Notes under the pieces: model-generated | Seen by the model: the letters and a program-made list of their open reading frames with translations, nothing else | What the model was told of the DNA's origin: nothing | The model's database searches: none | Virus record (IMG/VR): IMGVR_UViG_3300012936_003490 | Span: 12,957-76,956 of that record | Length of the DNA stretch: 64,000 nucleotides | Source of the DNA: a virus | Reading direction: 5' to 3' (one strand) | Program-made: the position numbers and the translations under genes | Shown here: positions 4,081-20,956 of the stretch, in pieces | Numbering within the stretch: the first letter of the stretch is position 1 | How the letters are laid out: each line of letters starts with the position of its first letter

Positions 4081-4081
4081 T

Positions 4082-4878: not shown

Positions 4879-4902
4879 CTTTATATATACAGCCCTGTAA
4901 AA

Positions 4903-4924
4903 TAATTTGATGTGAGTCAAATTA
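4903..4924. promoter_or_regulatory. 8-bp inverted repeat (FNR/CRP-box-like site or weak terminator hairpin)
   Basis: TAATTTGA-tgtgag-TCAAATTA; the core TTGAT-N4-GTCAA is one mismatch from TTGAT-N4-ATCAA. Followed by TTTT on the minus strand. Confidence 0.35.
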
Positions 4925-6061
4925 AGTCTCAATTATATCTACAATACAATTGTCTAATATCTTGTAATTTTGATTTCTTTGCTTATCATAAAGTTTGGTC
5001 TTTCTTGCAAACTCTTTAAGCAAAAAACTATCTTTATATTCTTGTTTACATTTAGTAAGGTATTGTAATATTTGCTTATTGCTGTTTTTTTCAATTGCTA
5101 TATTAATAATGTCATCTGGTAAATTTTTTACATTCAATTCACTTTTTGCATATGGTTTTATATAGCAATCAATATGTAATTCTTTATCATATCCTATGCT
5201 TTTCAAGTACTTTTCAATATTGGGTATATCAAATATGTTGTAAATATTAAGCAACGTAGAAATATTTAAAGTAAAACTAGGACTAGTATGTTTCATTAAA
5301 TTACGTAAATTAATGTCCAAGTCTTTCCATTTGCCAGGATATCTGATATATTCATAAACTTTATCAAATCCATCAATACTAACATTTATTGTACATTGTT
5401 CAAAACTAAGTAACTTATCTATAACATTTTGATTAATTTGCAATCCATTAGTAGTAATTTTCATACCAAGTCTTTTGTTATAATTATTTTCAATACACCA
5501 GTCTAACAATTTTATAAAATGTTTTTGATAAAAAGGTTCACCTCCAGTTGTCTTAAATTCTTTAAGTCCCTTTTTTATAAGTTCTTTACAATATTCTAAT
5601 TTTTCATCTTCTTTATATTTTTGATTTTTAGTTGGAACATTGTGTATACGATCTTGTTGCGGAATATTTTTTAGTAAAGAATTTATTAAACTGCTACTTA
5701 AAGGACTGCACATTCTACATGCAAGGTTGCATGTATTATTAAATTTTACATCAGCTGTTAAAACTGTCGTAGGTTCTAAATTATAGTTGACGTCAGTATA
5801 TTTTTTAACAAACTTCTGCCTACTACTTTCTATACCTACATCTTCTTGCCGATAACAAACTTCGCAGACTTTTGGTCTTTTGTTGTCACGCATATATTGA
5901 CGAGTAAGAATATGATCTTTAGAAAAAATTCCGTTTTTTATATCGTTGCCAGACCAATTACCTATATCACTTCTAAGATCAGTTCTACAACAAGGTACAA
6001 CTTTAGAACTAACTTTTACACAAAAATGATTCCACAACAACGGACATGCTGTTTCCATCAC
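4922..6061 (-). CDS. Radical SAM enzyme with N-terminal twitch/SPASM-like Cys cluster (subfamily A)
   Basis: CPLLWNH...PCCR...CEVC precedes CNLACRMC; GGEP, TTNG, SIDG...YEYIRYP. Confidence 0.9.
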   Translation of the reverse strand: MMETACPLLWNHFCVKVSSKVVPCCRTDLRSDIGNWSGNDIKNGIFSKDHILTRQYMRDNKRPKVCEVCYRQEDVGIESSRQKFVKKYTDVNYNLEPTTVLTADVKFNNTCNLACRMCSPLSSSLINSLLKNIPQQDRIHNVPTKNQKYKEDEKLEYCKELIKKGLKEFKTTGGEPFYQKHFIKLLDWCIENNYNKRLGMKITTNGLQINQNVIDKLLSFEQCTINVSIDGFDKVYEYIRYPGKWKDLDINLRNLMKHTSPSFTLNISTLLNIYNIFDIPNIEKYLKSIGYDKELHIDCYIKPYAKSELNVKNLPDDIINIAIEKNSNKQILQYLTKCKQEYKDSFLLKEFARKTKLYDKQRNQNYKILDNCIVDIIET

Positions 6062-7170
6062 ATTTTCCTTTTTGGAATTTTGCTATCTGCTGAACTTACA
6101 CAACTTTGCGTGATACACATTTTTGGCTCTTTAAATAGATTAAAGCCTGTTTCGATGTTACCAAGGGGTGCATCATGACAAGAATAACTCCTTTTTACCG
6201 AACCGTCAGGCTCCCGTATTATTATTCCGCTAAAACCGGCGTTACATGCCCATCCTTCAAATTTATTGAAATTAAAGGCGTTAAAGCGTTCTGCTTGGTC
6301 CATATACCATTTGTTACCTTTGGAGTCTTGCATTTCTACTTGCATGTGCCAAGGAACACTGGCATCATTTGTACCATTTATTCCTTTAGGTATTTCAAAT
6401 GTTGGTTTAGGGCGACCCTCCCATTTTCTTTTAAATTCTGTGTATGCTCTTTGTGGCATACCGTTCCAGAGTCGTTCAAGTTGATCCTTAGTGTATCCAT
6501 CAACCACCCTTGACGCAGTCGGATCCGATTGAGGCTTGAGTGTGACATTAATTCCTTGTTCGTGGAAGAAGAGAGCGTTTTCCCAATCTCTTTCAAACCA
6601 TTCAGGAACCATAACTTGATTGATTGTAATTTGTACATCGTATTCTTGACACAGGATTAATTTGTCTGCAAACTCCTGCATCCTCTCCTTTGTGTTTACA
6701 TGTTCTGTGTGCAGACTTGCTGTAATACTTGCTCTATGGAACGGCTTTGCATACTCTACATAAGTTTCAAACCACTTCATTGGACGACTACAGTTGCTCG
6801 TCATGTGTATACTTGTATAGTTTGTATTTGCTACATCATCTGCTAGATGTTTTAGTATGTCCAAGTATCCAGGATGGAAAGTAGGTTCTCCTCCTGACAA
6901 GGAGAAGTGGAAAGAATTGAAGCCGTTGAGTCTAGCTTGACGTTTGATTTCATCCACTGTAAGCAAGCAGAGCTCGGTAGGACGGTGGTCTTTACGATCG
7001 CTTCTTGCGTAAGGCCAGCAGTAGGAGCATCTGTAGTTACAGAATCTTCCGAGTAACCAGGATACAGTAAATAGATCGCGATAAAGCAGAGTACGTTGAC
7101 CAACAGAGACAATGTCATCAAAAGGGATCTTAGTAAAGTCATAATTACTCCATTTTAAATCTTCACTCAT
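6058..7170 (-). CDS. Radical SAM enzyme with C-terminal Cys cluster (subfamily C)
   Basis: CNYRCSYC, SGGEPT, C-terminal GWACNAG...SC...CITQSC. Confidence 0.9.
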   Translation of the reverse strand: MSEDLKWSNYDFTKIPFDDIVSVGQRTLLYRDLFTVSWLLGRFCNYRCSYCWPYARSDRKDHRPTELCLLTVDEIKRQARLNGFNSFHFSLSGGEPTFHPGYLDILKHLADDVANTNYTSIHMTSNCSRPMKWFETYVEYAKPFHRASITASLHTEHVNTKERMQEFADKLILCQEYDVQITINQVMVPEWFERDWENALFFHEQGINVTLKPQSDPTASRVVDGYTKDQLERLWNGMPQRAYTEFKRKWEGRPKPTFEIPKGINGTNDASVPWHMQVEMQDSKGNKWYMDQAERFNAFNFNKFEGWACNAGFSGIIIREPDGSVKRSYSCHDAPLGNIETGFNLFKEPKMCITQSCVSSADSKIPKRKM

Positions 7171-7175
7171 GAATT

Positions 7176-7204
7176 ATTGTAGCACCTTTACATAAACTTG
7201 TCAA
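7176..7204 (-). promoter_or_regulatory. Sigma70-type promoter, probably leaderless transcript
   Basis: TTGACA (7204-7199), 17-nt spacer, TACAAT (7181-7176), then 5 nt to the ATG at 7170; no Shine-Dalgarno. Confidence 0.75.
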
Positions 7205-8146
7205 CTATAGTTTATCTTTAATAAATGTATCTCTTTTATTTTGTTTACATACTTTTTCGCAACGTGGAATTCTATTATCAGATGTCCAACTATTTTGTAT
7301 GTCTGTCCAAACTTTTCCATTTAGTGCTTGTTCTACACTTACATTTTTTAGATTTATGTCAAACATGTAATCATTATCAATTAAAATTTCTTCAAACCTG
7401 TCTTTTGTTTTTCCGCTTACTGGATATTCTAACATTTTTGCATTAAGATGACAACAGGGTATAACATTGCCCATGTGATTGACAAATATACGTTTTTGAT
7501 TTGCATATTTACAACTTATGCAAGTAGATTCTTCTACTTCTATTTTTTTATGTTTTACACCGCCGGTATCTTTTCTATGGCTAATTATAGTTTTGAATGC
7601 TTTAAATCCTTCATCTTTGGCCATTTGCCTTGCTATTTCAAGTTGGTGTTCGTTATGCTCAAAACTTATAAACTGCCAATTTGCTTTGCCGCCGGCGGCA
7701 ATAAATGCTCTAAAGTTTTGCTGTACTTTTTTGAATTTAGAACCTTCTCTATATACTTCAGATAATTCGTCGCTTCCGTCTATGCCCCAAGTAACTCTAT
7801 GACTCTTAGGCAATATTCCTGCAAGTTCAGTCCACCATTTTGTAGTACGCAAACTACCATTTGTTGCAACATTTATATGTACGTCCCAATCAGCAAAGTG
7901 TTTCACAATATCAAAAAATTGAGGATGACTACAAGGTTCGTCAACACTACCGCAAAAATTTATAATTTTCATATTAGGAAACATCTGCTTTTGAAACTTT
8001 TCTTTAATAGTTTCTATATCAAGATATGTTTTATTTAATATTTGATCGGCATATTTAGATTCAACACGAAAACATCCTTTGCATTTTATATTGCAAAAAC
8101 TTGTAAGTTCTATGTCGATCCATTCTAAGGTATCAGCTGTCCACAT
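7205..8146 (-). CDS. Radical SAM enzyme with C-terminal twitch domain (subfamily B)
   Basis: CNIKCKGC, GSVDEP, TNGS, IDG..YR, FEHNEHQ, C-terminal C...PCC...CEKVC. Confidence 0.9.
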   Translation of the reverse strand: MWTADTLEWIDIELTSFCNIKCKGCFRVESKYADQILNKTYLDIETIKEKFQKQMFPNMKIINFCGSVDEPCSHPQFFDIVKHFADWDVHINVATNGSLRTTKWWTELAGILPKSHRVTWGIDGSDELSEVYREGSKFKKVQQNFRAFIAAGGKANWQFISFEHNEHQLEIARQMAKDEGFKAFKTIISHRKDTGGVKHKKIEVEESTCISCKYANQKRIFVNHMGNVIPCCHLNAKMLEYPVSGKTKDRFEEILIDNDYMFDINLKNVSVEQALNGKVWTDIQNSWTSDNRIPRCEKVCKQNKRDTFIKDKL

Positions 8147-9545
8147 CTTTAAAAATATCTCTCATTTCCGGAAATGTATCTGCAAATTTTATTCCTCTTT
8201 GTTTGTCGCAAAGTTCTAAAAATTCTTTCATTTCAGGCAAACGTACACTCCAATCTTCGCTGTCCATAAAACTTAGAATACCTTCTAGTCGTTTTATACC
8301 ATATTCTGCTGTTCGCCATTTGTTGTAATCAACTTTACCTTTGTGCCATGTTGGAACACCTAACTGCCGATTCTTTTCCCACCACGGATACCATGACTCA
8401 TATTTTTTATGACATTCTTCTTTGAACCATTTAGGTAAAACTTTTACATTTAAATGGCCTGGCCAATATACAAAGTGTTGACTAATACCACCTGCACCAA
8501 ACGGCCACATGTTAACTTTACGAAAACCTTGTTCTAGTTTCCATTGTATTAGGTCTGGAAGATAATAAACGTTAAGAGCTTGAACAGCGCAAGCAATGGT
8601 TATTTCTACATTGTTTGTTGTTTCTTTATCCAGTCTATGAAATGTGTTTACTTGATTAGCCCATTCGCTAGGATAACGTATATAACTGTTCATTTCTTTG
8701 ATGCTGTCAATGCTGTAGTGAAATCTTACCAATTTAAAATGACTCCAAAGTTCAAATAAATCTTCACGCCATTCTACACCATTTGAATTGTAGCGTAGTT
8801 CTAGATCTTTCGCATATCCCATCTTAATAGCATGTTCGAGTATTTCGTAGTGTTCTTCAATAATAAGACTTTCACCGCCAGCAAAATAAATTTGTTGCAT
8901 ACTTGGCATCTGCTCATAAAACTGTTTCCAAAATGTTGGATTTTGTTTATGCCAATTGTAACTACTACCGTTAGTGCTACCTTTGTCTTTCCATTGCATA
9001 ATCTCTTTTAGTGATTCATTTTTTACAGCAGGAAAAATTGCTTTGTAATCTTTGATCCAACCAGAGCTGTCATGCGGACTACACATAACACATGCTAATT
9101 GACACTTAGTTCCAAAACGTAAATCAATGTATGCTAGATTAGGAGGAACGCTTCCGTCCGGATTTGTTTCTTCTAATATCTTGTTAATATCAACACGCTT
9201 ACTCCAATATCTAGTTTCCCATTGTCTTTTACTTTTATGGCCAGCCGCTTCTTCTTTGTAACACTTTAAACAACTTGGTGGTTGTTCGCCATTAAGCATT
9301 TGCAGACGAACATTCTTCATATATGTGCTATTCCATGCTGTTTCAAAATCACTTACATTTAAATTGTTGGGTTTGCCGTCATCAGTTTTCAGAATACCTA
9401 CTTGGCCGCCATGTTCTTTATCATTTGTAGGACCAACACTACTAGCATTTGCTGTACAGCATACACGCATACTGCCGTCTGGTCTTGTGCTAAGATGTAC
9501 CCAGGGTAATAAGCAAAAAGTGTCTGAGGGATATTTATCGTTCAT
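8133..9545 (-). CDS. Radical SAM enzyme with N-terminal twitch-like Cys cluster (subfamily A)
   Basis: FCLLPWVH...VCC...CLKC, then CQLACVMC, AGGES, NSNG, YIRYP. Confidence 0.9.
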   Translation of the reverse strand: MNDKYPSDTFCLLPWVHLSTRPDGSMRVCCTANASSVGPTNDKEHGGQVGILKTDDGKPNNLNVSDFETAWNSTYMKNVRLQMLNGEQPPSCLKCYKEEAAGHKSKRQWETRYWSKRVDINKILEETNPDGSVPPNLAYIDLRFGTKCQLACVMCSPHDSSGWIKDYKAIFPAVKNESLKEIMQWKDKGSTNGSSYNWHKQNPTFWKQFYEQMPSMQQIYFAGGESLIIEEHYEILEHAIKMGYAKDLELRYNSNGVEWREDLFELWSHFKLVRFHYSIDSIKEMNSYIRYPSEWANQVNTFHRLDKETTNNVEITIACAVQALNVYYLPDLIQWKLEQGFRKVNMWPFGAGGISQHFVYWPGHLNVKVLPKWFKEECHKKYESWYPWWEKNRQLGVPTWHKGKVDYNKWRTAEYGIKRLEGILSFMDSEDWSVRLPEMKEFLELCDKQRGIKFADTFPEMRDIFKDVDS

Positions 9546-9549
9546 ATTG

Positions 9550-9555
9550 TACTTA
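9550..9555 (-). promoter_or_regulatory. Putative late promoter variant TAAGTA, leaderless
   Basis: ATAAGTA-caat-ATG (9545) in a 14-nt intergenic gap with no RBS. Confidence 0.5.
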
Positions 9556-9559
9556 TTTC

Positions 9560-10789
9560 TTAAGATATGCTCTCTAATTGTTTATTGACTTGCATTAATT
9601 TTTCATCACGACTTCTTGTTTCCGATCCGCAATGCTTGCCACATCTTACTATTCGAGGAAATTTTTTATCAAAAGTTGTGTTGTCAAAACTTTTGTTTAG
9701 ATCATTCGTAAAAAACCTATGATCCATAATTGCAGATAAAGTATGGAACTTTACATTATTCCAATCATCTGCATACTGATTCTCATAGTGAGACAAACGT
9801 TCATAATCACGTCTATCGCTTATCCAATCGTATTCTTTTGATTCATGAGGTTGAATAGGATAATGATAAAATGTGCTAAAATAACAACACTGCCAAACTC
9901 TGCCTGTATAGTCTATACTTATTTGACGTTTGTTAAACCATTCGCACTCGATCTCAGTGCTGTTAATATTTTCTTTTACTGAACGTTTATACCAAGGTTT
10001 ATTAGGATATTCGCTTCCTATTTGTTTATCTTCTGGTATTACTAGTTCTGCATACTGAGAAATTGTTTTGATATCTTCTTTGTTTATATTTTTCTTTTTT
10101 TGACTCAAATTATCTATTTTTATTTTATTTGTGTTATGGCGCAATCTAGATCTTCTAATTTTAAATTTATGAAATCCTAGCTGTTTAGCCATTGCTTTTG
10201 CTTTTTCTATTTGATGTTCGTTATGCTCAAAGGCAATGAAACTCCATACACATCTGACGCCACTTGCTATACATGTTTTAGCATTTTCTATAACTTTATC
10301 AAAATTAACTCCTCGTCTATACAGTTGGTGTGTATCATCGTCTACACCATCTAGAGCAAAAACAATTACACTAGTTTTATCATATTTTTGTTTAATAATT
10401 TTGCACAGAGACGTCCACCATTTTTCGTCATGTAATCCTCCGTTTGTTTCACACATAAAACGTAATTTTTCTGTAAGTTTATTTTTTAATCTATATTGAG
10501 AAAACTTGTTTACATTATCAGCAATTTTATCTACTATTGTATGACAATCAGGATGAAGTATAAAATCTCCGTATGTTCCTGTAAAGTTTATGTAACGTGC
10601 ATTTTGTGATACAGTTGTATCAAAGATATTGTCTATAAACATTTTATCTAACAAACCTGCTGATCCAACTTCTATAAAAGGATTAATTTCATCTGTTCCC
10701 TGCACAAATCTTTGGCAGTCTAAACATCTGCTGTTACAATTGCTTGTAATTTCTAGATGTATTCCTTGGTCGTGCATATCAAATTGCAT
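9560..10789 (-). CDS. Radical SAM enzyme with C-terminal twitch domain (subfamily B)
   Basis: CNSRCLDC, GTYGD, TNGG, LDG..YRR, FEHNEHQ, C...QCC...CGKHC. Start placed at ATG 10789 (MQFD), overlapping the upstream gene. Confidence 0.88.
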   Translation of the reverse strand: MQFDMHDQGIHLEITSNCNSRCLDCQRFVQGTDEINPFIEVGSAGLLDKMFIDNIFDTTVSQNARYINFTGTYGDFILHPDCHTIVDKIADNVNKFSQYRLKNKLTEKLRFMCETNGGLHDEKWWTSLCKIIKQKYDKTSVIVFALDGVDDDTHQLYRRGVNFDKVIENAKTCIASGVRCVWSFIAFEHNEHQIEKAKAMAKQLGFHKFKIRRSRLRHNTNKIKIDNLSQKKKNINKEDIKTISQYAELVIPEDKQIGSEYPNKPWYKRSVKENINSTEIECEWFNKRQISIDYTGRVWQCCYFSTFYHYPIQPHESKEYDWISDRRDYERLSHYENQYADDWNNVKFHTLSAIMDHRFFTNDLNKSFDNTTFDKKFPRIVRCGKHCGSETRSRDEKLMQVNKQLESIS

Positions 10790-11984
10790 ACTCAACACCA
10801 GTAACATGATTAGACATTAAAGATTTAAAAGTTTGTGCATCACTGCTTTTTGTTGCACACAGGCCGCATCTACAAATCATATTAGGACAAATTATAGGTT
10901 CTAATGTTCCTGATGCAAGTTGCTTTTCTACACTGTCTGTAAATTTTTTGTAATCTGTAATAGATCCAACTGCTCCTCTTTGTTTTCCAATTTTAGCTTG
11001 ACATGTTTGATGATGAAAAATTTGATCAGTTTGACTTTCAAGATGTAAGAAAAACCAATTCACTCCACAATACCAATCTAAAAATCGTGTATCTGAAACA
11101 TATCTTTGTTGTTCTGTTGTGCCGCATTTCAAACCGCAACTAAGTTGATGGTTACTACAACAATGTCTACCTTCTATAGTATATGTTTTAGTTTTATCTG
11201 CCTGTAATTTTTTAAATGTTTCTCCTACATCTTTTTTCATTTTACGATGAAGTTTGACCTCTTTGTTAACATTTTCAACTTTTTTAGTTGTGGTTGTAGC
11301 AATTTTTGTTTTACTGCTTTTACTGTTCTTATTTTGCCAGTAGTTTTTTATCCAACTACTCTGCTCATAACTGTAGGGTAAACCGTTTATTACCCTCGGC
11401 ATATACTTGACATCATGTTCTTCCATTACATCTATAAAATCTAAACACTCTTTCCAATAATTATCATATGGATGCATCATTAAATTAACTTTAAAACTTT
11501 TTAATTCTTGCTTTAATAGAAGAGTATTTTCTCTCACTTTTTGTTTGATTTTTTCTTTGCTATCACAGTGGTAACTTAATGTTATACCTCTAAAATTTTT
11601 TGCAAGTAGCGGAATATGTTTTTGTGCAAAACTACCGTTAGTTGTAAGTATAGTGTACACATCATAATCAAAGTCTTGAAAACTTTCTTTGAGATAAGAA
11701 CTAAAGTCAACAAAACAAGGATTTGCTGTTGGCTCTCCACCTGTAAGACTTAAACTTGCTGTCTTTTCTGTTCTATATGGCATGATAATTTTTAAGTAAT
11801 CTTTAACTAAGTCCACACCCTTAACTAGTTCGTTAAAACTAGGAAAAGGACTTACAAGGTCGTGTCTATCATCTCCGCAGTAAGCACAATCAAAATTACA
11901 CCGTTTTCCTGTATCCCAAGTGATAATAAACTGATTTGTTTTTACAGGATCAATGCTGTTATATGTTCCGTTTTCTCTATCCAT
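10779..11984 (-). CDS. Radical SAM enzyme with C-terminal Cys-rich domain (subfamily C)
   Basis: CNFDCAYC, TGGEPT, TTNG; C-terminal GRHCC...WYCG...TC...CPNMICRCGLC. Confidence 0.9.
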   Translation of the reverse strand: MDRENGTYNSIDPVKTNQFIITWDTGKRCNFDCAYCGDDRHDLVSPFPSFNELVKGVDLVKDYLKIIMPYRTEKTASLSLTGGEPTANPCFVDFSSYLKESFQDFDYDVYTILTTNGSFAQKHIPLLAKNFRGITLSYHCDSKEKIKQKVRENTLLLKQELKSFKVNLMMHPYDNYWKECLDFIDVMEEHDVKYMPRVINGLPYSYEQSSWIKNYWQNKNSKSSKTKIATTTTKKVENVNKEVKLHRKMKKDVGETFKKLQADKTKTYTIEGRHCCSNHQLSCGLKCGTTEQQRYVSDTRFLDWYCGVNWFFLHLESQTDQIFHHQTCQAKIGKQRGAVGSITDYKKFTDSVEKQLASGTLEPIICPNMICRCGLCATKSSDAQTFKSLMSNHVTGVEYAI

Positions 11985-13218
11985 CTAAATATTTCCGATA
12001 TCTCTTGTTTAATTTATTCAAGTCTGTATTACGTAGTTTGTCTTGAAGTTTTGTATAACTTTTAAAATATTCAAATTCACCTGTGCGTAACTTTCTGTTT
12101 TTATCAAAACTTAAAATATTTTCAATCTCTTTGAGTACAAAAGGACTAGATGATAGAGTTTTTTTGACATACTTTCTATCTTTGTCTGTCAAAAACGCTG
12201 TAGACAGCCAGGATTGTTCTACCTGTGCATATAAAACTTTAATTCCTCCACATGATCTAAACCAGGCATCAAACTCTGCAATTTTTTTGACATTTAAAAT
12301 ATTATACATTTGCATTACAAAACTTGTTTGTATTTTAACATTTTCAAAACGTTCAGCTAAATGCAGAAACTTTTCAATGTTATTTTTTACAATATTCCAG
12401 TTGCCGTTAGATCTTACATATTCATAATCTTTTTCTGTACCATCTAAACTTATCATAATAATGCATTTTTTAAATTTAGATACAATTTTATCAAAATCTT
12501 TAGGATAAATCGTTCCATTGGTTGTAAAAACTAGTTCGCACTCTTGTACATTTACACTATTAGAAAATTTATCTATAGCCAACCAAGATTCATCATGTAA
12601 TAAAGGTTCTCCTCCTAATAACTTCATACGTTTAACATTTTCAAAAGGAACTTGTTCTACAAAATTATTTGTGTCTTTGTTTTTTTTGTAAAGATGTTGA
12701 TTAGCATCTTTGACTATTCTATCGCTTATTTTATCAGGATCGGCATCAATATATTCATTTTGATGTTTAACCATTTCTTTTGCAATTTGAGAACTGCTTC
12801 CAGGTTTACACATTCTACATTGTAAGTTACATAGATTACTTGCTCTAATATCAAGACCTAAAGGTGCATTAAATTCATTTCCTGTTTCAACTGATAGTTT
12901 AAGGCCTTTTCCTTTTGTTAACCGTCTGGCCATATGATAATAAATGCGTCTTGCATTATAGCCTAATTTTTTTTCAATGTTTAAACAACTCTTACAAAAC
13001 TCTGGAACTACACCATCAAGCATTTGTTGCCGCACATTTTTCATATAATCACTTGTCCAATAATCTTTATAATCTTTAAAAGTAAGATCTATTGTTTCTT
13101 TTGTATTGCGAGTCTCGCAACAGGGACGTAGTAAGGATTTTTTTGCATCTCCTTTATAAAATAAATGCATAAAAGGAGCGTAGCACAGGGGCTCAGACTG
13201 TTGGTTTTGGTTTTCCAT
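11977..13218 (-). CDS. Radical SAM enzyme with N-terminal twitch-like Cys cluster (subfamily A)
   Basis: LCYAPFMH...PCC...CKSC, CNLQCRMC, GGEP, TTNG, SLDG...YEYVR. Confidence 0.9.
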   Translation of the reverse strand: MENQNQQSEPLCYAPFMHLFYKGDAKKSLLRPCCETRNTKETIDLTFKDYKDYWTSDYMKNVRQQMLDGVVPEFCKSCLNIEKKLGYNARRIYYHMARRLTKGKGLKLSVETGNEFNAPLGLDIRASNLCNLQCRMCKPGSSSQIAKEMVKHQNEYIDADPDKISDRIVKDANQHLYKKNKDTNNFVEQVPFENVKRMKLLGGEPLLHDESWLAIDKFSNSVNVQECELVFTTNGTIYPKDFDKIVSKFKKCIIMISLDGTEKDYEYVRSNGNWNIVKNNIEKFLHLAERFENVKIQTSFVMQMYNILNVKKIAEFDAWFRSCGGIKVLYAQVEQSWLSTAFLTDKDRKYVKKTLSSSPFVLKEIENILSFDKNRKLRTGEFEYFKSYTKLQDKLRNTDLNKLNKRYRKYLDG

Positions 13219-14587
13219 CAAAGTGGGCTCCTGGTCTAGATCCTTCAGTTACATTTGTTGGATCATATCTGTCAAAATATCTTTGTAGCATTGGTTCAAT
13301 AGTAAGCGTATCAGTTCCTCTGATTTTATTCAACGCTAATTCTGCCCTCACAAAATCATTTGTATATCTTACTTTGCGCTCATGTGTTTGTGTTTTATCA
13401 AGTTCACTGTGTAGCAAATCAAACCATTGTTGTTCGTCCTTGTTCATATCAAACTCAACAATACACTCTTGAACTTGCTGTCTAATATAATCCTTGTGGT
13501 CATCGTCTAACCAACTTACACTTAGGTACCAAGGATCAACTATAGGATTAAATGTTACACCATTATGCTTGTTTGAATACTTACGTGATCCTTTAAGGAA
13601 CCATTCAACATTACGCTTTACTTGGAATGCACTTACAGGCTGGAATACATGCATAATACCTGCCCACTTTAGGTTAGGCAATGTAAATATTTTGTCAAAT
13701 ACTTTTTGTTTTTTATCCCATTTAGTACCGTCACGTAAAAATTCGTCTGTGGCTCCTACGCCATCTACACTAATGTTAAAGCTCACTTCTTTAAACTGAG
13801 CAAGTAAGTCATAAATCCTACTTGGTAAACTTGTGCAGTTTGTTATTTGATGCAGTCTTACATTGCGAGCTTCTCCGCTGTCTACAATCTTTTTCATAAT
13901 ATTGTAAACACGAGGATCAATAAGTGTTTCGCCTCCACTCATTTTCAAACGAAATACTTTACTAAAGTCTAAATTACTTACCACATCAAACTTAGGATCT
14001 GAATAATCTATTTGCTGTGCTTTACGCATTGCATTCTTACTTTGTGTAACCATATCCCAATGACTCCAACCCTGTATTTCTGGGTTAGCAAGCACTTCTT
14101 GCTCAATTTGGTTACTCCAAAGGCTATTACAACTGCGACATTTCAAGTTACACAGTTTACTAGGACGTAGATCAATATCCACAGGTTTTTCAAACTCAAG
14201 TGTACCCTTTTGAATATCCCAATGTATATCTGTAAAGCCTTCTTTAAGTTCTAGCTCGTAGCGTTTTATATAATCTAATCTGTCGCTTTTATGATAGATG
14301 CCTTCACTTTCCCAACGTCCGCACCACCATTCACAAGACTCTGGCATTTTACCATCAAGAAAACTTTGACGAATTTCTTGCATTGTCTCGCCTTTCCAAA
14401 ATTCTTCATGCTGATCTTTAAGACTAGATTCAGTATCCCATCGTCCAATCACATGACTCATACAACAAAGTTTATATCCTCTGTTGTTTGCATTTATGTA
14501 TGTGTGCATAAACGGTGCAGGACAGAATTTTTTGTTTGGAACGATGCTTTCTAAACGTTCTGCTTCTTTTTTATCTATTTTAGCCAT
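13193..14587 (-). CDS. Radical SAM enzyme with N-terminal twitch-like Cys cluster (subfamily A)
   Basis: FCPAPFMH...LCC...CEWWC, CNLKCRSC, SGGET, SVDG. Confidence 0.9.
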   Translation of the reverse strand: MAKIDKKEAERLESIVPNKKFCPAPFMHTYINANNRGYKLCCMSHVIGRWDTESSLKDQHEEFWKGETMQEIRQSFLDGKMPESCEWWCGRWESEGIYHKSDRLDYIKRYELELKEGFTDIHWDIQKGTLEFEKPVDIDLRPSKLCNLKCRSCNSLWSNQIEQEVLANPEIQGWSHWDMVTQSKNAMRKAQQIDYSDPKFDVVSNLDFSKVFRLKMSGGETLIDPRVYNIMKKIVDSGEARNVRLHQITNCTSLPSRIYDLLAQFKEVSFNISVDGVGATDEFLRDGTKWDKKQKVFDKIFTLPNLKWAGIMHVFQPVSAFQVKRNVEWFLKGSRKYSNKHNGVTFNPIVDPWYLSVSWLDDDHKDYIRQQVQECIVEFDMNKDEQQWFDLLHSELDKTQTHERKVRYTNDFVRAELALNKIRGTDTLTIEPMLQRYFDRYDPTNVTEGSRPGAHFDGKPKPTV

Positions 14588-15822
14588 TCAGTTAATTCCA
14601 CACATGATAAATCATCGAAAGATTGACTTCGTTGTTCATCAAGTGTTGTTGACATATATTTAAGCTGATCACGTTTTTTATATTTTACGTCTGGTTCAAT
14701 CTTTTTTGCCATCTCAACATAACGTTCAAATTCTTTAACTTGCCTACAGTCAGTATTTTGCCATTTTGTTAGAGTACATTCTAGTAAACTACTAGGTAAA
14801 AACTTTGCGGCAAGTTCACTGTCTTTAGGACGTAGATTTAAATTAAAGTCAATACGGGGTATGTAATTTTTCTTTAACAACCAAGGATACTTTTCTGTAT
14901 AGGATTTTAATGTAGTATACAGTTCTGGATTATTATGCCAATTATAGGCTGTTACTACTGTACTTGTTCTAACTCTAAAATGAGGATTTTCATACATTCT
15001 ATGTTCATCTGCAAAAGCAAGAAACTCCATAAATCTTTCTTGCCACTTACTCCACGTAAACGGATACCGAATATAGTCGTAGGTTTCATTGCATCCGTCA
15101 ACACTTACATTTAGGTCGACACCCTTAAAATGTTTTAACCTTTCTAACACCGCACGAACAAACTTGGTTCCATTTGTAGTTATTAACAATCTAATATTTT
15201 TAGCAAAGTCATTGTCAATTGCATAATCAAGAACATCAAGAAATTCTTTACTTATAAAAGGCTCACCACCTGTGACTTTTAGTACTTCAATTGTGTCTAA
15301 CAATTCAATCACATATTCTTTACGTTTTTGGCTTACAGTTGCAGTGTCTTTCTGCTTGTAGTTTGTAAAAGATTTCCAATGCTCAGGCATAGGCTTTTCA
15401 TTATCTCTGTACCAATCTATAGCTGAAACAAGTTGATTACTACTACTTGGGTCACACATTCTACAAGCAAGATTACAAGTGTTATCAAAACGCAAATCTA
15501 AATATTTAATTTTTTCATCTGCGTCAGGATTAACAAACTCTTTAAATTTATCTACAGTGTAGGTGTGTCTAAAACTTAGTCCGTCGTTGCGCTCTCTTGC
15601 ATAACAAACTTCGCAAGCAGGATGTTCTTTTCCTTGTTGCATGTATGCCCGTATCTCGTCCATGCTTGTGCTTTCAAATGCTTGTTTTATACTGTTAGCA
15701 TCATCTTTAAAATTAAAGTAACTTTCGCTGTTACAACAAGGACGATAACCTCCGCCTACACTTCCGTTTACGTGTATCCAAGGAAGTATGCAAAATGTTT
15801 TACTATTTGTTGGTTGCTTCAT
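14575..15822 (-). CDS. Radical SAM enzyme with N-terminal twitch-like Cys cluster (subfamily A)
   Basis: FCILPWIH...PCC...CEVC, CNLACRMC, TGGEP, TTNG, SVDG...YDYIRYP. Confidence 0.9.
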   Translation of the reverse strand: MKQPTNSKTFCILPWIHVNGSVGGGYRPCCNSESYFNFKDDANSIKQAFESTSMDEIRAYMQQGKEHPACEVCYARERNDGLSFRHTYTVDKFKEFVNPDADEKIKYLDLRFDNTCNLACRMCDPSSSNQLVSAIDWYRDNEKPMPEHWKSFTNYKQKDTATVSQKRKEYVIELLDTIEVLKVTGGEPFISKEFLDVLDYAIDNDFAKNIRLLITTNGTKFVRAVLERLKHFKGVDLNVSVDGCNETYDYIRYPFTWSKWQERFMEFLAFADEHRMYENPHFRVRTSTVVTAYNWHNNPELYTTLKSYTEKYPWLLKKNYIPRIDFNLNLRPKDSELAAKFLPSSLLECTLTKWQNTDCRQVKEFERYVEMAKKIEPDVKYKKRDQLKYMSTTLDEQRSQSFDDLSCVELTEWLK

Positions 15823-16859
15823 CTTATCTTCTCTAATGTTTTTTTGTATTTTTTTAACATTTTAAGAGCAGATAGGTCTTCATGCTCTAAGTGAAGTTGC
15901 AAATATCTTGTTACAAATTGATTTTTTATTTTCTTAATAAACTTTTCTTTCTTGTTTTTTGGCAATATTTGTATATCTAAATAATAAGGCTGTTGTAAAA
16001 TATCAAAACGTGTGGGAAAATACTTTCTACTAAATTCTAAATAATTATTAATATTATGTATATTTAAATTATGAACTACAAAATGAAAAGATATTTCAAT
16101 ATTAGTGTGTTTTGCTTTAAAATCTTTCCACCATTTTATATTTTCGATTACTTTTTTCCAATTAGTTCCATACCTTACAAATTCTGCGGTTTTGCCTTCT
16201 CCATCTAAACTTATATCTACATTTAATTTTTTGCATTTGACAAATATATTTTGCCATTCTTTATTAGGCTTTACACTACAATTTGTAACAATTTGTAAAT
16301 TTATATTTTCTAATAATAAACTTTGTAAAAATTTGATATTCCTTGGCTCCATAAAAGGTTCTCCTCCAAGAATTTTTACCATCTCTACTTTCTTTAATTC
16401 TTGGGGAACAAAATCAAAGTCTGTATATACAACTTGCTTTTTTGGTTTGGCTTTATTTGCTCCTATTGAATTTACAGCATCAATATCTTTCCACCAAGTG
16501 GTGCTGTATGCCGCATCACATGTAACACAGGCAAAATTGCAACTATTACTTAATCCAACTTCTATATATCTTATTTCAGGATTATTTTTGTTTATGTTAC
16601 TAAAGTCTTGATTAGCTGTTTGTCTATAACTTTTCCTACCTAACTTTTCATCTCTATAACATTTTTCACAACCTTTGATATATTCTCCTTTTAACATTTT
16701 ATTCCTTAGCTCTGTCATCTTAGAACCATAAAAATAATCACGAGGAGATATCTTATCTATATATTCTTTATCAGAAAACCTACAGCAAGGTTTGTTCCTG
16801 CCACCTACATTTGTACAACTGTGGATAAAAGGTAACGGACAATAAGTTTTGTTTACCAT
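15819..16859 (-). CDS. Radical SAM enzyme with N-terminal twitch-like Cys cluster (subfamily A)
   Basis: YCPLPFIH...PCC...CEKC, CNFACVTC, GGEP, SLDG. Confidence 0.9.
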   Translation of the reverse strand: MVNKTYCPLPFIHSCTNVGGRNKPCCRFSDKEYIDKISPRDYFYGSKMTELRNKMLKGEYIKGCEKCYRDEKLGRKSYRQTANQDFSNINKNNPEIRYIEVGLSNSCNFACVTCDAAYSTTWWKDIDAVNSIGANKAKPKKQVVYTDFDFVPQELKKVEMVKILGGEPFMEPRNIKFLQSLLLENINLQIVTNCSVKPNKEWQNIFVKCKKLNVDISLDGEGKTAEFVRYGTNWKKVIENIKWWKDFKAKHTNIEISFHFVVHNLNIHNINNYLEFSRKYFPTRFDILQQPYYLDIQILPKNKKEKFIKKIKNQFVTRYLQLHLEHEDLSALKMLKKYKKTLEKIR

Positions 16860-18067
16860 ACCATTTCCTCAACTGACTTTCCAAAGACTTTAGAAAAATT
16901 TTGATTTTTAATAGTGTCAATTCTATGTGTATAATATATAAATGCATCTACATCTTTTTTAGATTCTCTTGAATTTTGTAAAGCATGTATAATCATATCT
17001 GCCATTTTAATTGCACCTTGACGTTGTAAACTTTTCTCCTGCGAAAATAGTTTTTTCCTAATTTTTCCAACATGTTTTATAAGATTGTTTTTTTGATTGT
17101 ATAAAACATCTATGCCTAAATATGTAGGATACTGAACAAAACTATGATGCAGTCTGTCTACCGGTAATAATAACATATCGTTAATAATATTTTCTAAATC
17201 TAAAATTTGATAAGGTGTTATTGTGTTAGTAGCTTCTAAAATTGTTTTTTTGTTTTTTTTCTTAAACGTTTGAATATTTGTGATTATATTCTCATATATC
17301 CCGTTCCTAAAATAATTATAAAGATTACTACCTCCATCTACACTAATTTTTATTTGTGATCTACCAAAGTTATTCATATATTCGCTTAGTTTTTCATAAT
17401 CAACAGGAGTGTTAAAATTGCTAACAATATTCACCCAAATTTTATTTCTATTTGGGTGTGCTTGTATGCCTTCTAAAAATTGCCAAAATTGTTTTTGATA
17501 TAAAGGTTCGCCACCTCCAACATCTATTCTTTTAAGGTTAGGACAGTTTTGTATCAAATCAGTTACAAGATCATTTACTTGTTCTTTAGTCCATGATTGA
17601 TTAGGCCACTGCCTTACCAAATTCTTTATGTCATGTGTGTAATCATCTGGCACACGTTCTACTCGTTTTAAAATACTGTTCCATTTACTTGAATAATCAG
17701 GAGCACAGTGTCTACAACTAAGGTTACATGCATTACTAAATCTTATCTCTATGTATTCAATATTACGTTGTTTAATTTTATTTTGACGATTCAACTTCGT
17801 AACCATTTTTTGATTTTGATTACTTTTTTGTCTATAACTTTCTTGTCCCCTTGATTCTTGATCTTGACAACTTTTACAATGCTCTGGCCAGACACCTTTT
17901 GCAAGTGATTGTCTTATTGCTCTAAAATTATCATTATTGATAAATTTGCTAGGAGCTACACCTTCAGATATGTTTGCTAGAGAGCCTGTGCCTCTAGGAC
18001 ACATTGTAATTCTATCGTCAGGTTTAAAGTTTACGGCATGAAGTGCAAAATAACAAGGCAATTTCAT
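16853..18067 (-). CDS. Radical SAM enzyme with N-terminal twitch-like Cys cluster (subfamily A)
   Basis: PCYFALH...MCP...CKSC, CNLSCRHC, GGGEP, SVDG...YNYFR. Confidence 0.88.
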   Translation of the reverse strand: MKLPCYFALHAVNFKPDDRITMCPRGTGSLANISEGVAPSKFINNDNFRAIRQSLAKGVWPEHCKSCQDQESRGQESYRQKSNQNQKMVTKLNRQNKIKQRNIEYIEIRFSNACNLSCRHCAPDYSSKWNSILKRVERVPDDYTHDIKNLVRQWPNQSWTKEQVNDLVTDLIQNCPNLKRIDVGGGEPLYQKQFWQFLEGIQAHPNRNKIWVNIVSNFNTPVDYEKLSEYMNNFGRSQIKISVDGGSNLYNYFRNGIYENIITNIQTFKKKNKKTILEATNTITPYQILDLENIINDMLLLPVDRLHHSFVQYPTYLGIDVLYNQKNNLIKHVGKIRKKLFSQEKSLQRQGAIKMADMIIHALQNSRESKKDVDAFIYYTHRIDTIKNQNFSKVFGKSVEEMVW

Positions 18068-18819
18068 TTTATATTACCTATGTGATTATATAAAAATCTT
18101 GCTAGTTCAGTATGTCCTTCTTCTAACGGGTGGTTATCAGGGCCAATTGAGTAATTCTTATCTTGGCACCATTCTAAGATTCCTTGTTCTCCTAGTGGCC
18201 ATATATTTTTATTCAGATCAATACATCCGTATGTGTCTATTATTTCTTTTGTAATATGATTTGGATACCTTTTGTTCCTGCATTTTTCTATCGTGCGATT
18301 AATATCATCAAATGTATGATGGTTCATTGTTAACATAACGTAAGGAATATTGTAACTTTTCAATAACATTTGTGTATCTAATATATTATTCATAGTATAA
18401 AATGCACTGCAATGTTGAGAGAAATAAATTTGATGTTTGGCAAGATGTTTGGTACTATCATTAGGAAGTTCACTCATCCTTATATCTACCCATTTCGCCA
18501 TAGATTTTTCCTTCATAAACCTGGATGGCATAAGCGGAATATAGCCGGTATTATATTCGTTTGCTGGCCAATCTTTATTATATAATTCCCATCTACTAGT
18601 CGAACTCCATTGAATAACAGCTATCTTGACTTTGTCTTTATTTTTTATTATACTTCTAAGTGTAGTTCTTGCTATTCTTGCATTACTTGAACCTCCCATA
18701 GCATCGTTAAGATGACTAGGATATCCTAGAAGTTGTGTAAGGATATTACTATATCTACTCTGTCTTTTTTGTTGTAATTCATGTCCATCAGTATAACTGC
18801 ATCCGTTTGCGTATAACAT
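18064..18819 (-). CDS. SGNH/GDSL-like hydrolase or acyltransferase
   Basis: Start placed at MLYANGCSYTDG (TAATG overlap at 18819). GxS nucleophile motif, GGSSNARI block, C-terminal DNHP...GH. Confidence 0.65.
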   Translation of the reverse strand: MLYANGCSYTDGHELQQKRQSRYSNILTQLLGYPSHLNDAMGGSSNARIARTTLRSIIKNKDKVKIAVIQWSSTSRWELYNKDWPANEYNTGYIPLMPSRFMKEKSMAKWVDIRMSELPNDSTKHLAKHQIYFSQHCSAFYTMNNILDTQMLLKSYNIPYVMLTMNHHTFDDINRTIEKCRNKRYPNHITKEIIDTYGCIDLNKNIWPLGEQGILEWCQDKNYSIGPDNHPLEEGHTELARFLYNHIGNIK

Positions 18820-19877
18820 TATAATTCCTGCATTCCTATGTGCTTGCCTATAGGTATACTTTTCTTTGAGCATTGTTTTATACATGTAGACAAGCACCCA
18901 TTCTCAAAAGAATATTTTTCACTCCAACTATTGACTAAGGCATCTGAATAATATTCACCTGCTATTATATCATCTAAGTTGTATTTGTGAAGACTGTTAA
19001 AACCTACTCCGTATTTTAAAAAAACTTTATTTTGCATCTCAGTATAATAGGTGTATCCTCTTGTCAAAGGATTTGATACAAAGCAACACGGCCAAATTGC
19101 ACCGTTGTAATCTAAAAACATTTTCTTTTCTTGTCGGAAGTGACAATCTATATCAATTTCGTTACCGTAGCTTGCAACCAAATTATCAACACTAGATATA
19201 TCTAATCTTTTACTAGCTCTATTTGGTACAGTTTTAATTCTGTTACGAAAAGCCATTGCATTTACTATACCATTTTCACTGTATGTAGATCTATCTCTTC
19301 TAAGTACAAAACGTTTCATGCCTATTTTTTTTGCAATTTTTTTACAACGCTTAACATCTTTTTTGTTCCAAGGAAATTCTAACATTTGCCATAATGCAGA
19401 TCCTCCTGCTTTTATAAAAATTTCTGCATGACTTATTATATCATCCCAATTTTCTACACCACGATACAAAAAATGATTTTCTTGCATTCCGTCAATGCTA
19501 AATCTAACCATATGTTGCGGATGCCTACATAATTTCTCGGCAAGCTCAACGTAAAATTTATTACTACGCAAACTTCCGTTCGTGTGTATGCTTACAGTGC
19601 ATTGAGGATTGTATGTATAGATAGTGTCTAGTATATCTAAGAAATATTTATGAGCCAAGGGTTCATCTACTGTACCGCAAAATTCAATTTCTTTAATTTG
19701 TCTTCCTACATCTGTATCAAATATGTTTTTGAAAACGTCTGTAGGCAAAAATTTAGTTCCTTCTTGCTTGAATAAAAATTTTGCATTAGGTGCAACCCTT
19801 ACACAACCTTGACAATCTGCATTGCAAAAATTAGATATCTCTACCTGTAATACATCTATCTGTGTCAAATACTTCAT
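18819..19877 (-). CDS. Radical SAM enzyme with C-terminal twitch domain (subfamily B)
   Basis: CNADCQGC, GTVDEP, TNGS, SIDG...YR, FPWN, C...PCC...CIKQC. Confidence 0.9.
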   Translation of the reverse strand: MKYLTQIDVLQVEISNFCNADCQGCVRVAPNAKFLFKQEGTKFLPTDVFKNIFDTDVGRQIKEIEFCGTVDEPLAHKYFLDILDTIYTYNPQCTVSIHTNGSLRSNKFYVELAEKLCRHPQHMVRFSIDGMQENHFLYRGVENWDDIISHAEIFIKAGGSALWQMLEFPWNKKDVKRCKKIAKKIGMKRFVLRRDRSTYSENGIVNAMAFRNRIKTVPNRASKRLDISSVDNLVASYGNEIDIDCHFRQEKKMFLDYNGAIWPCCFVSNPLTRGYTYYTEMQNKVFLKYGVGFNSLHKYNLDDIIAGEYYSDALVNSWSEKYSFENGCLSTCIKQCSKKSIPIGKHIGMQEL

Positions 19878-20956
19878 GTAAATTGTTCTGCATATGGATC
19901 AAATTCGCTTCCGCATTTTTGAGCGCAAACTCCTAATTTTCCTTGGGCAATACTTTCTTTTTTCCAACTATCTGATATGCTGTTAATTAATTTTCCATTA
20001 ACAACTGTTTTAATATCATTATTGATAATATTTATACCCTGTTTTCCTCCTGCAAAATCTATATGATCCCAAATTTGTTCAACACGAGGATCATTATGCC
20101 ACCATTTATACATTCGTCCAGCTGTCCAACAACATGGCATCAAAAGTCCTTCGGCAGTTACAAAAATACTACCTTGTTTTGCTACCTTACAAGTTACACT
20201 ACATTTGTCTAGATAATTGGCCATACTACCGTAAGATTTTTCAATCTCTTTTTGTTTAAGCAATGCAAGATTTTGATTTTGTTCTTGTGTTGGTTTTTGT
20301 AGTTTTTGTGTATCTGACCCTTTGCGATTTACAGCTTGATGTTCATTTTTTGGTTTTATATCAGTTGTAATAAATCTGCCTGATTTCTTCTTTACAAACT
20401 TTTCACATCCCCATACTTTTGCAAGTGCTTCTGCTTGTTCAACTTGATGTTCGTTGTGCTGAAATATTAAATAATCCCATCGAGCTCTACCTCCGGCATC
20501 AATAAATGCTCGCATGTTGCGTTCTACATTGTCCCATACAACATTCTGCCTGTACAAATGATTAGTGTCCCTAAGGCCGTCCACGCTGAAAATAACAGCA
20601 CCCATCCTGCCAAAAACTTTGGCCAGTTCACGCCACCATGCTTCATCTTTTGCTCCTGCATTTGTATTCATACTAAGCCACATGTTAGGGTTATGTGTTC
20701 TAAAATAACGAAAAACTTCAAGTGTATCTCGCGCTATTATAGGGTCTCCTAGGTTACCACACATATACATTGTTTTTAATTGTTTTATAAAAGAAGGTTT
20801 AAATATCTTAACGCAATCTTCGTGAGACAATTCTGCATTTGTAATATGAGGGTTGTCTGCACCTCCATTCATATTGCGATCACACATAGGACATGCGGCT
20901 TGACAACGTTGGGTAATTTCTAAATGTACTTCTTTAATATCTTCGTATCTATACAT
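19874..20956 (-). CDS. Radical SAM enzyme with C-terminal twitch domain (subfamily B)
   Basis: CQAACPMC, GNLGDP, SVDG...YR, FQHNEHQ, C...PCC...CAQKC. Confidence 0.92.
   Translation of the reverse strand: MYRYEDIKEVHLEITQRCQAACPMCDRNMNGGADNPHITNAELSHEDCVKIFKPSFIKQLKTMYMCGNLGDPIIARDTLEVFRYFRTHNPNMWLSMNTNAGAKDEAWWRELAKVFGRMGAVIFSVDGLRDTNHLYRQNVVWDNVERNMRAFIDAGGRARWDYLIFQHNEHQVEQAEALAKVWGCEKFVKKKSGRFITTDIKPKNEHQAVNRKGSDTQKLQKPTQEQNQNLALLKQKEIEKSYGSMANYLDKCSVTCKVAKQGSIFVTAEGLLMPCCWTAGRMYKWWHNDPRVEQIWDHIDFAGGKQGINIINNDIKTVVNGKLINSISDSWKKESIAQGKLGVCAQKCGSEFDPYAEQFT

Follow-up and report, generated by a model that had tools for sequence, protein, structure and literature searches.

The window analysed here is a 64,000-nucleotide stretch of the IMG/VR virus record IMGVR_UViG_3300012936_003490 (positions 12,957 to 76,956 of that record), and on its minus strand, between positions 4922 and 20956, about 16 kb are given to an array of 13 genes encoding radical S-adenosylmethionine (SAM) enzymes (rSAMs). 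We found that the array is built on three conserved anchor genes, named B4, A2 and C1, with variable cassettes between and after them that are swapped among related phages, that its motifs are intact and its genes under purifying selection, and that its gene neighbourhood is in part common to phages and bacteria. The best-supported reading is that the enzymes use radical chemistry in the cytoplasm to tailor a glycan or sugar-derived product made by the phage, and we give this reading about an even chance of being correct.

Fourteen packed minus-strand open reading frames (ORFs) fill the region 4922–20956, and the 13 that a first-pass annotation, made from the sequence alone, had called rSAMs were all recovered as such, each with a single CxxxCxxC motif, which that annotation had described as intact. 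Twelve of them exceed the Pfam gathering threshold of PF04055 (Radical_SAM), with 30.3–59.7 bits at a cut-off of 29.5; the thirteenth, A4 (13193–14587), scores 18.2 bits with PF04055 versus 240.2 bits with NF033640. When all six frames of the 76,956-bp contig were searched for the family, the same 13 rSAMs and no further ones were recovered. The array is not a pure tandem of rSAM genes, since a non-rSAM gene at 18064–18897 interrupts it. The ORFs overlap their neighbours by 1–79 nt and just two gaps occur across 4922–24482; the sole sizeable gap within the array is the 34 nt upstream of C1 (7171–7204), and 78 nt (4844–4921) separate the array from the downstream genes. Because of these tight overlaps and few gaps, the genes look like one translationally coupled operon.

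An all-against-all BLAST comparison grouped the proteins into the three interleaved subfamilies expected from the first inspection: A with seven genes (45–152 bits within the group), B with four (96–116 bits) and C with two, which match each other with only 44 bits. This C1–C2 link is weak, and the two are joined securely solely through the C-type clusters of relatives. Within each group the identity is 20–30%, which agrees with the deep divergence noted at the outset.

Subfamily A comprises A1 (4922–6061), A2 (8133–9545), A3 (11977–13221), A4, A5 (14575–15822), A6 (15819–16859) and A7 (16853–18067), which have in common an N-terminal four-cysteine module, a CNLxCRMC motif (CNLACRMC from residue 111 in A1) and a GGEP motif. 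The four N-terminal cysteines, numbered C11, C29, C92 and C95 in A2, do not vary among the seven proteins and are invariant or near-invariant over 82 relatives, and in the alignment A7 has one cysteine at the position of the CC pair, the second being absent. Subfamily B comprises B1 (7205–8146; PF04055 33.7 bits), B2 (9560–10807; 44.9), B3 (18819–19877; 35.3) and B4 (19874–20956; 33.5), the first rSAM of the operon. Its five C-terminal cysteines, in the pattern Cx18CC...CxxxC, are invariant in all four members. The FEHNEHQ/FQHNEHQ motif, previously reported for three of these proteins, is present in B1, B2 and B4, and its place is taken by FPWNKKD in B3. The further claim that every B protein ends in a twitch domain is in line with the five aligned cysteines; the Pfam SPASM threshold (PF13186, cut-off 21.5) is passed among them only by B1, with 24.3 bits at its C-terminus, B3 remaining below it with 20.0 bits and B2 and B4 giving no match. 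The only other protein of the array to pass is A2, with 24.2 bits over the N-terminal residues 11–96, and members other than B1 and A2 are labelled "twitch" because of their cysteine pattern only. Subfamily C consists of C1 (6058–7170; PF04055 54 bits), with the motif CNYRCSYC and C-terminal cysteines at 309, 331, 352 and 357, and C2 (10779–11984; 35.2 bits), which shows the C-type cysteine columns. Over 13 C-type clusters four C-terminal cysteine columns are invariant and a fifth is kept in 11; the Pfam SPASM search gave no match in this subfamily, and its cysteine-rich C-terminus is seen by alignment. Conserved cysteine columns that could provide auxiliary ligands, as had been suggested, are therefore found in A, B and C alike. 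In the B and C enzymes the CxxxCxxC motif starts at residues 18–51, too close to the N-terminus for a peptide-recognition domain to precede it.

Subfamily A belongs to a family that is already catalogued. All seven proteins match the full 398-position model NF033640 (N_Twi_rSAM) with 234–425 bits against a cut-off of 170 (A1 247.7, A2 424.8, A3 241.1, A4 240.2, A5 261.7, A6 257.7 and A7 233.6 bits). The NF033640 entry states no function, the literature that we searched contained no functional study or assayed member of NF033640 or of the N-terminal twitch rSAMs, and no protein above the cut-off was found in any of 14 model organisms. The B and C proteins reach 39–54 bits with this model and hence are not members, and no curated NCBIfam family reaches its cut-off with them; their best matches, which include a tungsten-cofactor maturase model, MoaA and viperin, lie at 35–66 bits against cut-offs of 180–380. 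For C1, a large protein collection contains 4,840 clusters of homologues (formed at 90% identity), with generic names throughout. No member of the array reaches the cut-off of a housekeeping model: for MoaA (TIGR02666), QueE (TIGR03365/TIGR03963) and NrdG (TIGR02491/TIGR02495) the best scores are 16–40 bits against cut-offs of 126–325 (QueE 16–21 against 206–260), and for viperin (NF038283/TIGR04278, cut-offs 180/450) the best is 38.9 bits, for C1. The model of the cytosylglucuronate decarboxylase BlsE (TIGR04466) gave 17–22 bits against a cut-off of 400, and the resemblance to BlsE described below is one of core fold only.

The source contig has a CheckV completeness of 21%. Its baseplate wedge protein is 34–38% identical to those of the jumbo phages SCTP-2, Atu_ph07 and PA5oct, tail-fibre-type genes lie on both sides of the cluster, and a related contig of 381,886 bp has a completeness rating of 100%, from which we estimate a genome of probably about 350–380 kb. 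The window is thus probably a fragment of a marine jumbo phage of that size. Marine metagenomes of three studies, from 2014, 2017 and 2025, contain near-identical DNA (0–2 differences per contig). When 50,697 phage records were searched with the 16-kb array for near-identical DNA, nothing matched; a protein search of phage records with A2 gave only three weak matches at 22% identity and no cultured relative, and a search of genome contigs with the single homologue P0020 gave no related loci.

Related loci were obtained from 451 pattern-matched IMG/VR stretches, 446 of which encode a relative of A2; 80 loci, 80–92% identical to A2, were kept. Their genes were called as simple longest ORFs and clustered at no less than 50% identity, and the counts given here are over 81 loci. 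The loci are arranged on one frame, which in transcription order consists of a left-border protein, the small protein c2, B4, variable genes, A2, further variable genes and C1. A2 is found in all 81 loci, B4 in 74 (60–85% identity) and C1 in 47 (80–94% identity), the last count being limited by the 10-kb flank. Around these anchors the rSAM content turns over strongly. The relatives hold 616 rSAM ORFs of at least 250 residues, 608 of them with CxxxCxxC, which fall into 141 clusters (105 of type A, 22 of type B and 14 of type C), 56 being singletons. Forty loci have all three anchors, and they show 27 different architectures. From B4 to C1 there are 5–12 rSAMs per locus (median 8), and the window stands at the top of this range with 12, to which A1 is added outside the C1 anchor; whole related records contain 7–19 rSAM matches. 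Among the genes of the window, A1 is a singleton, B1 is a common cassette (22 of the 81 loci), B2 forms a cluster of three with loci L029/L041, and A4 is 88% identical to its orthologue in the same two loci; A3, A5, A6, A7, B3 and C2 are cassettes as well.

Other enzymes occupy the variable slots of the relatives too, including B12-binding rSAMs, a UDP-glucose/GDP-mannose dehydrogenase in seven loci and stand-alone PP-loop-like proteins with a weak QueC-like match, also in seven, and some relatives carry a carbamoyltransferase homologue. An 830-residue protein (locus L054, 12553–15042, plus strand, and four more loci) joins an A-type rSAM, within its first approximately 285 residues, to a stretch around residues 601–636 with weak PP-loop ATPase-like similarity. 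Apparent cassette loss read from contig joints was not trusted, the sides of these joints being only 20–32 letters long. In one metagenome run, X7, contigs at least 90% alike gave a summed depth of 130–680x over the anchors versus 5–30x over variable cassettes (window positions 5656–7647, 8312–8975 and 19600–20927); these depths, which would fit many co-occurring relatives that have only the anchors in common, are unsuited to ranking genes.

Ratios of nonsynonymous to synonymous substitution (dN/dS) were estimated by the Nei-Gojobori method between the genes of the window and their orthologues, and they are rough values, as synonymous sites are near saturation. They were 0.065 for A2, 0.057 for C1 and 0.14 for B4 among the anchors, and 0.09 for B1, 0.05 for A4, 0.065 for A5, 0.23 for A6, 0.23 for B2 and 0.10 for C2 among the cassettes. 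This range of 0.05–0.23, far under 1, indicates purifying selection and leaves no sign of relaxation. Paralogues are 20–30% identical to one another, whereas phage orthologues are 44–94% and the anchor orthologues in bacteria 46–66% identical, so that the diversification is older than the phage lineage. Judged from these comparisons, the paralogues are therefore old, functional and exchanged genes, and not recent tandem duplicates. Of the two origins first proposed, repeated duplication or exchange, the second is upheld by the conserved anchors and swapped cassettes, and repeated duplication within this phage is not, because the paralogues predate the lineage. Each enzyme may act on a separate position or substrate, as was also suggested at first pass.

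Another early suggestion, that the array places a large Fe-S demand on the infected cell, is plausible. A gene for an A-type Fe-S carrier (PF01521, 57 bits) is encoded in the complete 382-kb relative (G001:C1:336710-337012) and in a second one (G003:C1:98206-98508); five related records searched for flavodoxin (PF00258) yielded none.

Cellular genomes carry this system too. They were scanned with the A-family motif, one genome per species, which gave 323 confirmed stretches, from which 76 loci were taken; the use of a motif biases which taxa appear. The top of the list was mostly Bdellovibrionota. As in the phages, A-type genes form arrays, as many as nine lying within 20 kb; 72 of the 76 loci together contain 196 such genes, and they are accompanied by B-like and C-like rSAMs. 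Orthologues of the anchors in the cellular loci are 64–66% (C1), 55–59% (A2) and 46% (B4) identical to those of the phage. Five Bdellovibrionota genomes of 1.9–4.0 Mb (G006–G010, with loci L151, L152, L143, L087 and L123) have 13–18 NF033640 matches each, in several arrays, and one complete 1.9-Mb Bdellovibrionota chromosome has 16. A query with the phage baseplate protein gave no match in the five genomes. The combination of A, B and C types extends to culturable strains of Bdellovibrio and Halobacteriovorax (loci L105 and L128). The neighbours that recur in the cellular loci include GT2 glycosyltransferases, in three clusters, together with a carbamoyltransferase, two clusters of the Asp/Asn-hydroxylase family (Asp_Arg_Hydrox), a B12-rSAM, an ABC ATPase, and SDR-like (short-chain dehydrogenase/reductase) and GDSL-like proteins. 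The families common to phage and bacterial loci are glycosyltransferase-like, methyltransferase, carbamoyltransferase, B12-rSAM, SDR-like and PP-loop-like proteins. Contigs from bacterial metagenome-assembled genomes attributed to Crocinitomicaceae (L083, JBDNIA010000282.1), the Gammaproteobacteria bin MED685 (L125/L108, NZGL01000008.1) and Neisseriaceae (L119, CANEUJ010000032.1) had anchor orthologues at 68–87%, and several proteins of L083 are 100% identical to those of the viral locus L028; these contigs probably belong to the phage lineage and were misbinned.

The structure of A5 was predicted with AlphaFold from an 82-sequence alignment (mean predicted local distance difference test, pLDDT, 94.5). 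In comparisons by Foldseek and VIA-align, the rSAM core alone (residues ~100–375) matched solved structures, and no Foldseek TM-score normalised to the query exceeded 0.36; neither the twitch module at the N-terminus nor the helical part at the C-terminus had a full-length solved counterpart. The best VIA-align Z-scores were effectively tied: DesII 13.8, SkfB 12.5, MoaA 12.1, anSME 12.1, CteB 12.0, viperin 11.9 and BlsE 11.8 (root-mean-square deviation, rmsd, 3.5 over 208 residues). Profile searches with A and with B also returned BlsE, and the best structural and profile matches include SkfB, CteB, anSME, SuiB and EpeE. As enzymes acting on sugars, peptides and nucleotides are tied, the fold of A5 does not discriminate among these substrates. 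The sequence of C1 had no match among solved structures.

Upstream of the rSAM genes, the frame opens with the left-border protein, which has 873 residues in the window (21861–24482, minus strand) and is split into two genes in many relatives. Two repeats with the pattern YDI..SYDEPNA...DGD, in which the DGD motif follows a beta strand, are followed by helical repeats and, at the C-terminus, by a domain also found in a separate gene, c5, of relatives. The predicted structure (pLDDT 84.8) shows this last domain to be a class I SAM methyltransferase, with the Nod-factor N-methyltransferase NodS as best match (Z 15.7, rmsd 2.9 over 168 residues). The N-terminal half was matched by Foldseek to the chondroitin polymerase K4CP, which has two GT-A domains (E 3.8e-6 over 613 columns, with low TM-scores), and to Mimivirus R699 (E 7e-6), and on the strength of these matches the repeats are provisionally considered GT-A-like. 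The protein has no Pfam match, profiles of it and of its split form gave nothing meaningful against the sequences of the Protein Data Bank, and an atlas look-up placed it in viral hypothetical clusters only, with weak leads (0.77–0.80) to GT2 and methyltransferase proteins.

We infer the substrate class, the reaction types and the destination of the product as follows. The 13 genes would be the rSAM part of a same-strand biosynthetic and tailoring operon of about 27 kb that lies between tail-fibre genes and opens with the tandem GT-A-like and methyltransferase protein, followed by c2. The anchors B4, A2 and C1 probably carry out invariant steps, and the A-, B- and C-type cassettes between and after them would add strain-specific ones. 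At each [4Fe-4S]/SAM site a 5'-deoxyadenosyl radical would be generated and would abstract a hydrogen atom from a sugar carbon, the twitch-type auxiliary cluster handling the redox step, with epimerisation, oxidation, deoxygenation, decarboxylation or cross-linking as possible outcomes. The likeliest substrate would be an oligo- or polysaccharide made by the phage, or another sugar-derived product, destined for the virion (its fibres) or the surface of the infected cell, and cassette exchange would diversify its structure between phage strains.

The glycan reading is preferred because sugar-type genes accompany the array in phages and in bacteria, with glycosyltransferase-like, methyltransferase and UDP-sugar dehydrogenase genes lying within the phage islands themselves; because no peptide-recognition domain or plausible variable precursor was seen; because the layout of anchors and variable tailoring genes resembles that of O-antigen loci; and because the sugar-acting enzymes DesII and BlsE are among the tied best structural and profile matches. 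A uronic-acid-containing polymer would fit the K4CP-like polymerase, the UDP-sugar dehydrogenase and the resemblance to BlsE and DesII. Several observations weigh against it. SPASM/twitch rSAMs more often act on peptides, and the peptide maturases SkfB, CteB and anSME tie structurally with the sugar enzymes. The GT-A assignment derives from Foldseek matches of low TM-score, a comparison of the 873-residue protein's repeats with a profile of verified GT2 proteins (hhalign) gave a non-significant probability of 1.6%, and no canonical glycosyltransferase family was detected in the island of the window. The aminotransferase at the distal end of the cluster is of class IV, the amino-acid type, and not a DegT-type sugar aminotransferase, and Asp/Asn-hydroxylase-family proteins may act on proteins or lipid A.

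A wider proposal, which we advance only tentatively, is that the combined A, B and C set is a mobile diversifier of surface chemistry that has so far gone unrecognised. The three anchors would build a fixed, radical-modified glycan or glycopeptide scaffold, and a large open pool of cassettes (at least 141 types in 81 loci) would rewrite its C-H positions, giving strain-specific decoration of prey-contact structures in jumbo phages and predatory Bdellovibrionota. If this were true, the paralogues would hold several never-described types of radical reaction on carbohydrates.

Modification of proteins or peptides is the alternative that survives best, although we consider it unlikely. The enzymes would introduce cross-links, epimerisations and similar changes into a peptide resembling the RiPPs (peptides made on ribosomes and modified after translation), possibly c2, or into tail-fibre or other virion proteins, in which case variable cassettes would match variable fibres. 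SPASM/twitch-type auxiliary clusters are typical of peptide maturases, and the matches to SkfB, CteB, anSME, SuiB and EpeE point the same way, as do the tail-fibre genes that flank the island on both sides and the co-occurrence of B12-rSAM, methyltransferase, Asp/Asn-hydroxylase-family and PP-loop-like genes, as in proteusin-type clusters. The small protein c2 (73 residues, under the 80-residue cut-off at which its ORF was missed; 21656–21874, minus strand) is found directly ahead of the array in 64 of the 81 loci, at 67–82% identity. However, c2 is strongly conserved (dN/dS ~0.09) over its full length, only the last 5–10 residues varying, although the enzyme set around it changes, and it has neither a cysteine nor a hypervariable core. 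It gave no family match and no usable atlas match, and its profile had no PqqD-like match among solved structures; a weak resemblance to armadillo-type repeats is seen at its N-terminus and also in the 873-residue protein's helical repeats. Further against a peptide substrate, our searches returned no RiPP recognition element (RRE) or PqqD-like domain, the B and C enzymes have no N-terminal extension, no small ORF fits between the overlapping array genes, and the GT2, carbamoyltransferase and UDP-sugar dehydrogenase neighbours indicate sugars.

The production of a small secondary metabolite or cofactor-like molecule independent of sugars, for example one derived from an amino acid, with the rSAM cassettes as its tailoring enzymes, is a more doubtful option. 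It could accommodate the class IV aminotransferase, a weak SDR match, the PP-loop/QueC-like cassettes, the TctA transporter elsewhere on the contig and the mix-and-match behaviour of the cluster, which is like that of a biosynthetic gene cluster. Against it, a core scaffold enzyme (nonribosomal peptide synthetase, polyketide synthase or terpene synthase) was not seen, the sole conserved non-rSAM parts are the glycosyltransferase-like/methyltransferase protein and c2, and GT2 genes recur in the cellular loci.

DNA hypermodification is common in jumbo and T4-like phages, its loci vary between strains, and the pathways of thymidine hypermodification include rSAM steps, so that the island might build and diversify a base modification, by glycosyl, methyl and radical steps, against host restriction. 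The weak QueC-like cassette in seven loci would agree with this, and so might a sequence with a perfect sigma-70 consensus, which may suggest early expression. Nevertheless, we regard this explanation as very improbable: the island shows no signature of QueE, DpdA or a base hydroxymethylase, 13 rSAMs are far above the number in any known DNA-modification pathway, and the system is also found in the chromosomes of bacteria, where GT2, ABC-transporter and carbamoyltransferase genes adjoin it. Finally, the idea that these are housekeeping or auxiliary-metabolism copies (MoaA, QueE, NrdG or similar to the activase of pyruvate formate-lyase) that boost host cofactor or nucleotide metabolism is essentially excluded, since the generic similarity to MoaA, NrdG and QueE models (E 1e-3 to 1e-10), echoed in the name "organic radical activating enzyme" that public sources give to relatives, amounts to bit scores far under the curated cut-offs and under those with NF033640, and thirteen paralogues with cassette turnover fit such a role poorly.

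Returning to radical tailoring of a glycan, the island can be compared with several known systems. With the NF033640 family the phage A proteins share the full-model match, the N-terminal four-cysteine module, CNLxCRMC and GGEP; what the entry does not contain are the arrays with B and C rSAM types, the three anchors and the swappable cassettes, in jumbo phages and Bdellovibrionota. BlsE, DesII and the BtrN-type dehydrogenases have the rSAM core fold and an auxiliary cluster in common with the phage enzymes, whose array lies in a sugar-type neighbourhood, but their auxiliary module is C-terminal, whereas that of subfamily A is N-terminal. The SPASM/twitch peptide maturases (anSME, SkfB, CteB, SuiB, EpeE and PoyD-type epimerases) likewise combine CxxxCxxC with a cysteine-rich auxiliary module, and proteusin pathways also have several tailoring rSAMs per cluster; in contrast to these systems, the phage array has no detected RRE and no recognisable precursor whose core varies, and its proteins reach none of their family cut-offs.

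Bacterial O-antigen and capsule loci and the clade-specific glycosylation clusters of giant viruses are strain-variable glycan gene clusters. The phage island resembles O-antigen and capsule loci in its conserved flank or anchor genes and mix-and-match tailoring genes, and we liken it to strain-variable glycan clusters also in that it adjoins host-recognition (fibre) genes. The K4 chondroitin capsule loci, in particular, encode a two-domain GT-A-like polymerase and a UDP-sugar dehydrogenase, counterparts of which, a provisional one in the case of the polymerase, are present in phage islands. Unlike in known O-antigen and capsule loci, the variable tailoring genes of the phages are overwhelmingly rSAMs, 5–12 between the anchors.

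rSAM enzymes do some of the hardest C-H chemistry in biology, and most of their subfamilies are unassayed. The lineage studied here is abundant and recurs globally in the sea, the A2 anchor being present on hundreds of IMG/VR stretches, and the exchange of cassettes under purifying selection points to a large untapped set of reactions. The pattern also points to an unrecognised layer of strain diversity in phages beside the host-recognition genes. As Bdellovibrio and Halobacteriovorax carriers are culturable, the function is open to ordinary genetics despite the lack of a cultured phage host. A 183-kb T4-like marine viral genome with 12 rSAM genes and an Fe-S A-type carrier was described previously (Nishimura et al. 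2017, PMC5332604); it is rich in rSAMs and has the carrier, like our complete 382-kb relative, but is smaller than the ~350–380 kb estimated here, and its rSAM genes were only counted, as Fe-S-related auxiliary metabolic genes, with no subfamilies, architecture or function given. The literature that we searched on rSAMs in jumbo marine phages contained no functional study, and the three-anchor cassette layout, the association of A, B and C types and the sharing with predatory bacteria are not described in it.

The remaining genes of the cluster, all on the minus strand, are less informative. The non-rSAM gene inside the array (18064–18897) is possibly SGNH/DUF6071-like, with 25.8 bits to DUF6071 at a cut-off of 27. 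Between c2 and B4 lies a gene for a 235-residue protein (20949–21656), a singleton cluster with no Pfam or NCBIfam match, and these two genes have no detectable relation to each other. Downstream of the array, two genes for proteins of 229 and 253 residues (3391–4843; clusters c12, in 10 loci, and c24, in 7) recur after C1; neither has a Pfam or NCBIfam match, and by eye only they have the look of cupins or 2-oxoglutarate oxygenases (HxD...H). At its distal end (571–1410) the same-strand cluster carries the gene of the class IV aminotransferase, which matches PF01063 with 113.8 bits. Canonical GT2 (PF00535) was absent from the island of five related records and found only elsewhere in the complete relative G001.

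Two sites are leads only for promoters, judged by consensus. A candidate sigma-70-type promoter at 26828–26856 (minus strand; TTGACA-17-TATAAT), which lies ahead of the operon within the 56-nt gap before the gene at 26471–26803, agrees with the consensus at 12 of 12 positions, and a candidate sigma-70-like site at 7176–7204 (minus strand), in the gap just upstream of C1, agrees at 11 of 12 only. Counts of sigma-70-like and terminator-like sites in the window are at chance level, and the T4 late-promoter motif TATAAATA is not enriched in the window; it is depleted, with 3 sites versus 12 expected.

Two further genes were recorded in passing. A full-length membrane subunit of a TctA tripartite tricarboxylate transporter (L001 9265–10701, 318.6 bits) is encoded upstream of the window; it is an unusual auxiliary gene for a phage contig and a possible clue to the host. 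A single ORF of 4,981 residues (34063–49008, minus strand), with the tail-fibre genes on one side and the baseplate wedge gene on the other, presumably encodes a giant virion or fibre protein.

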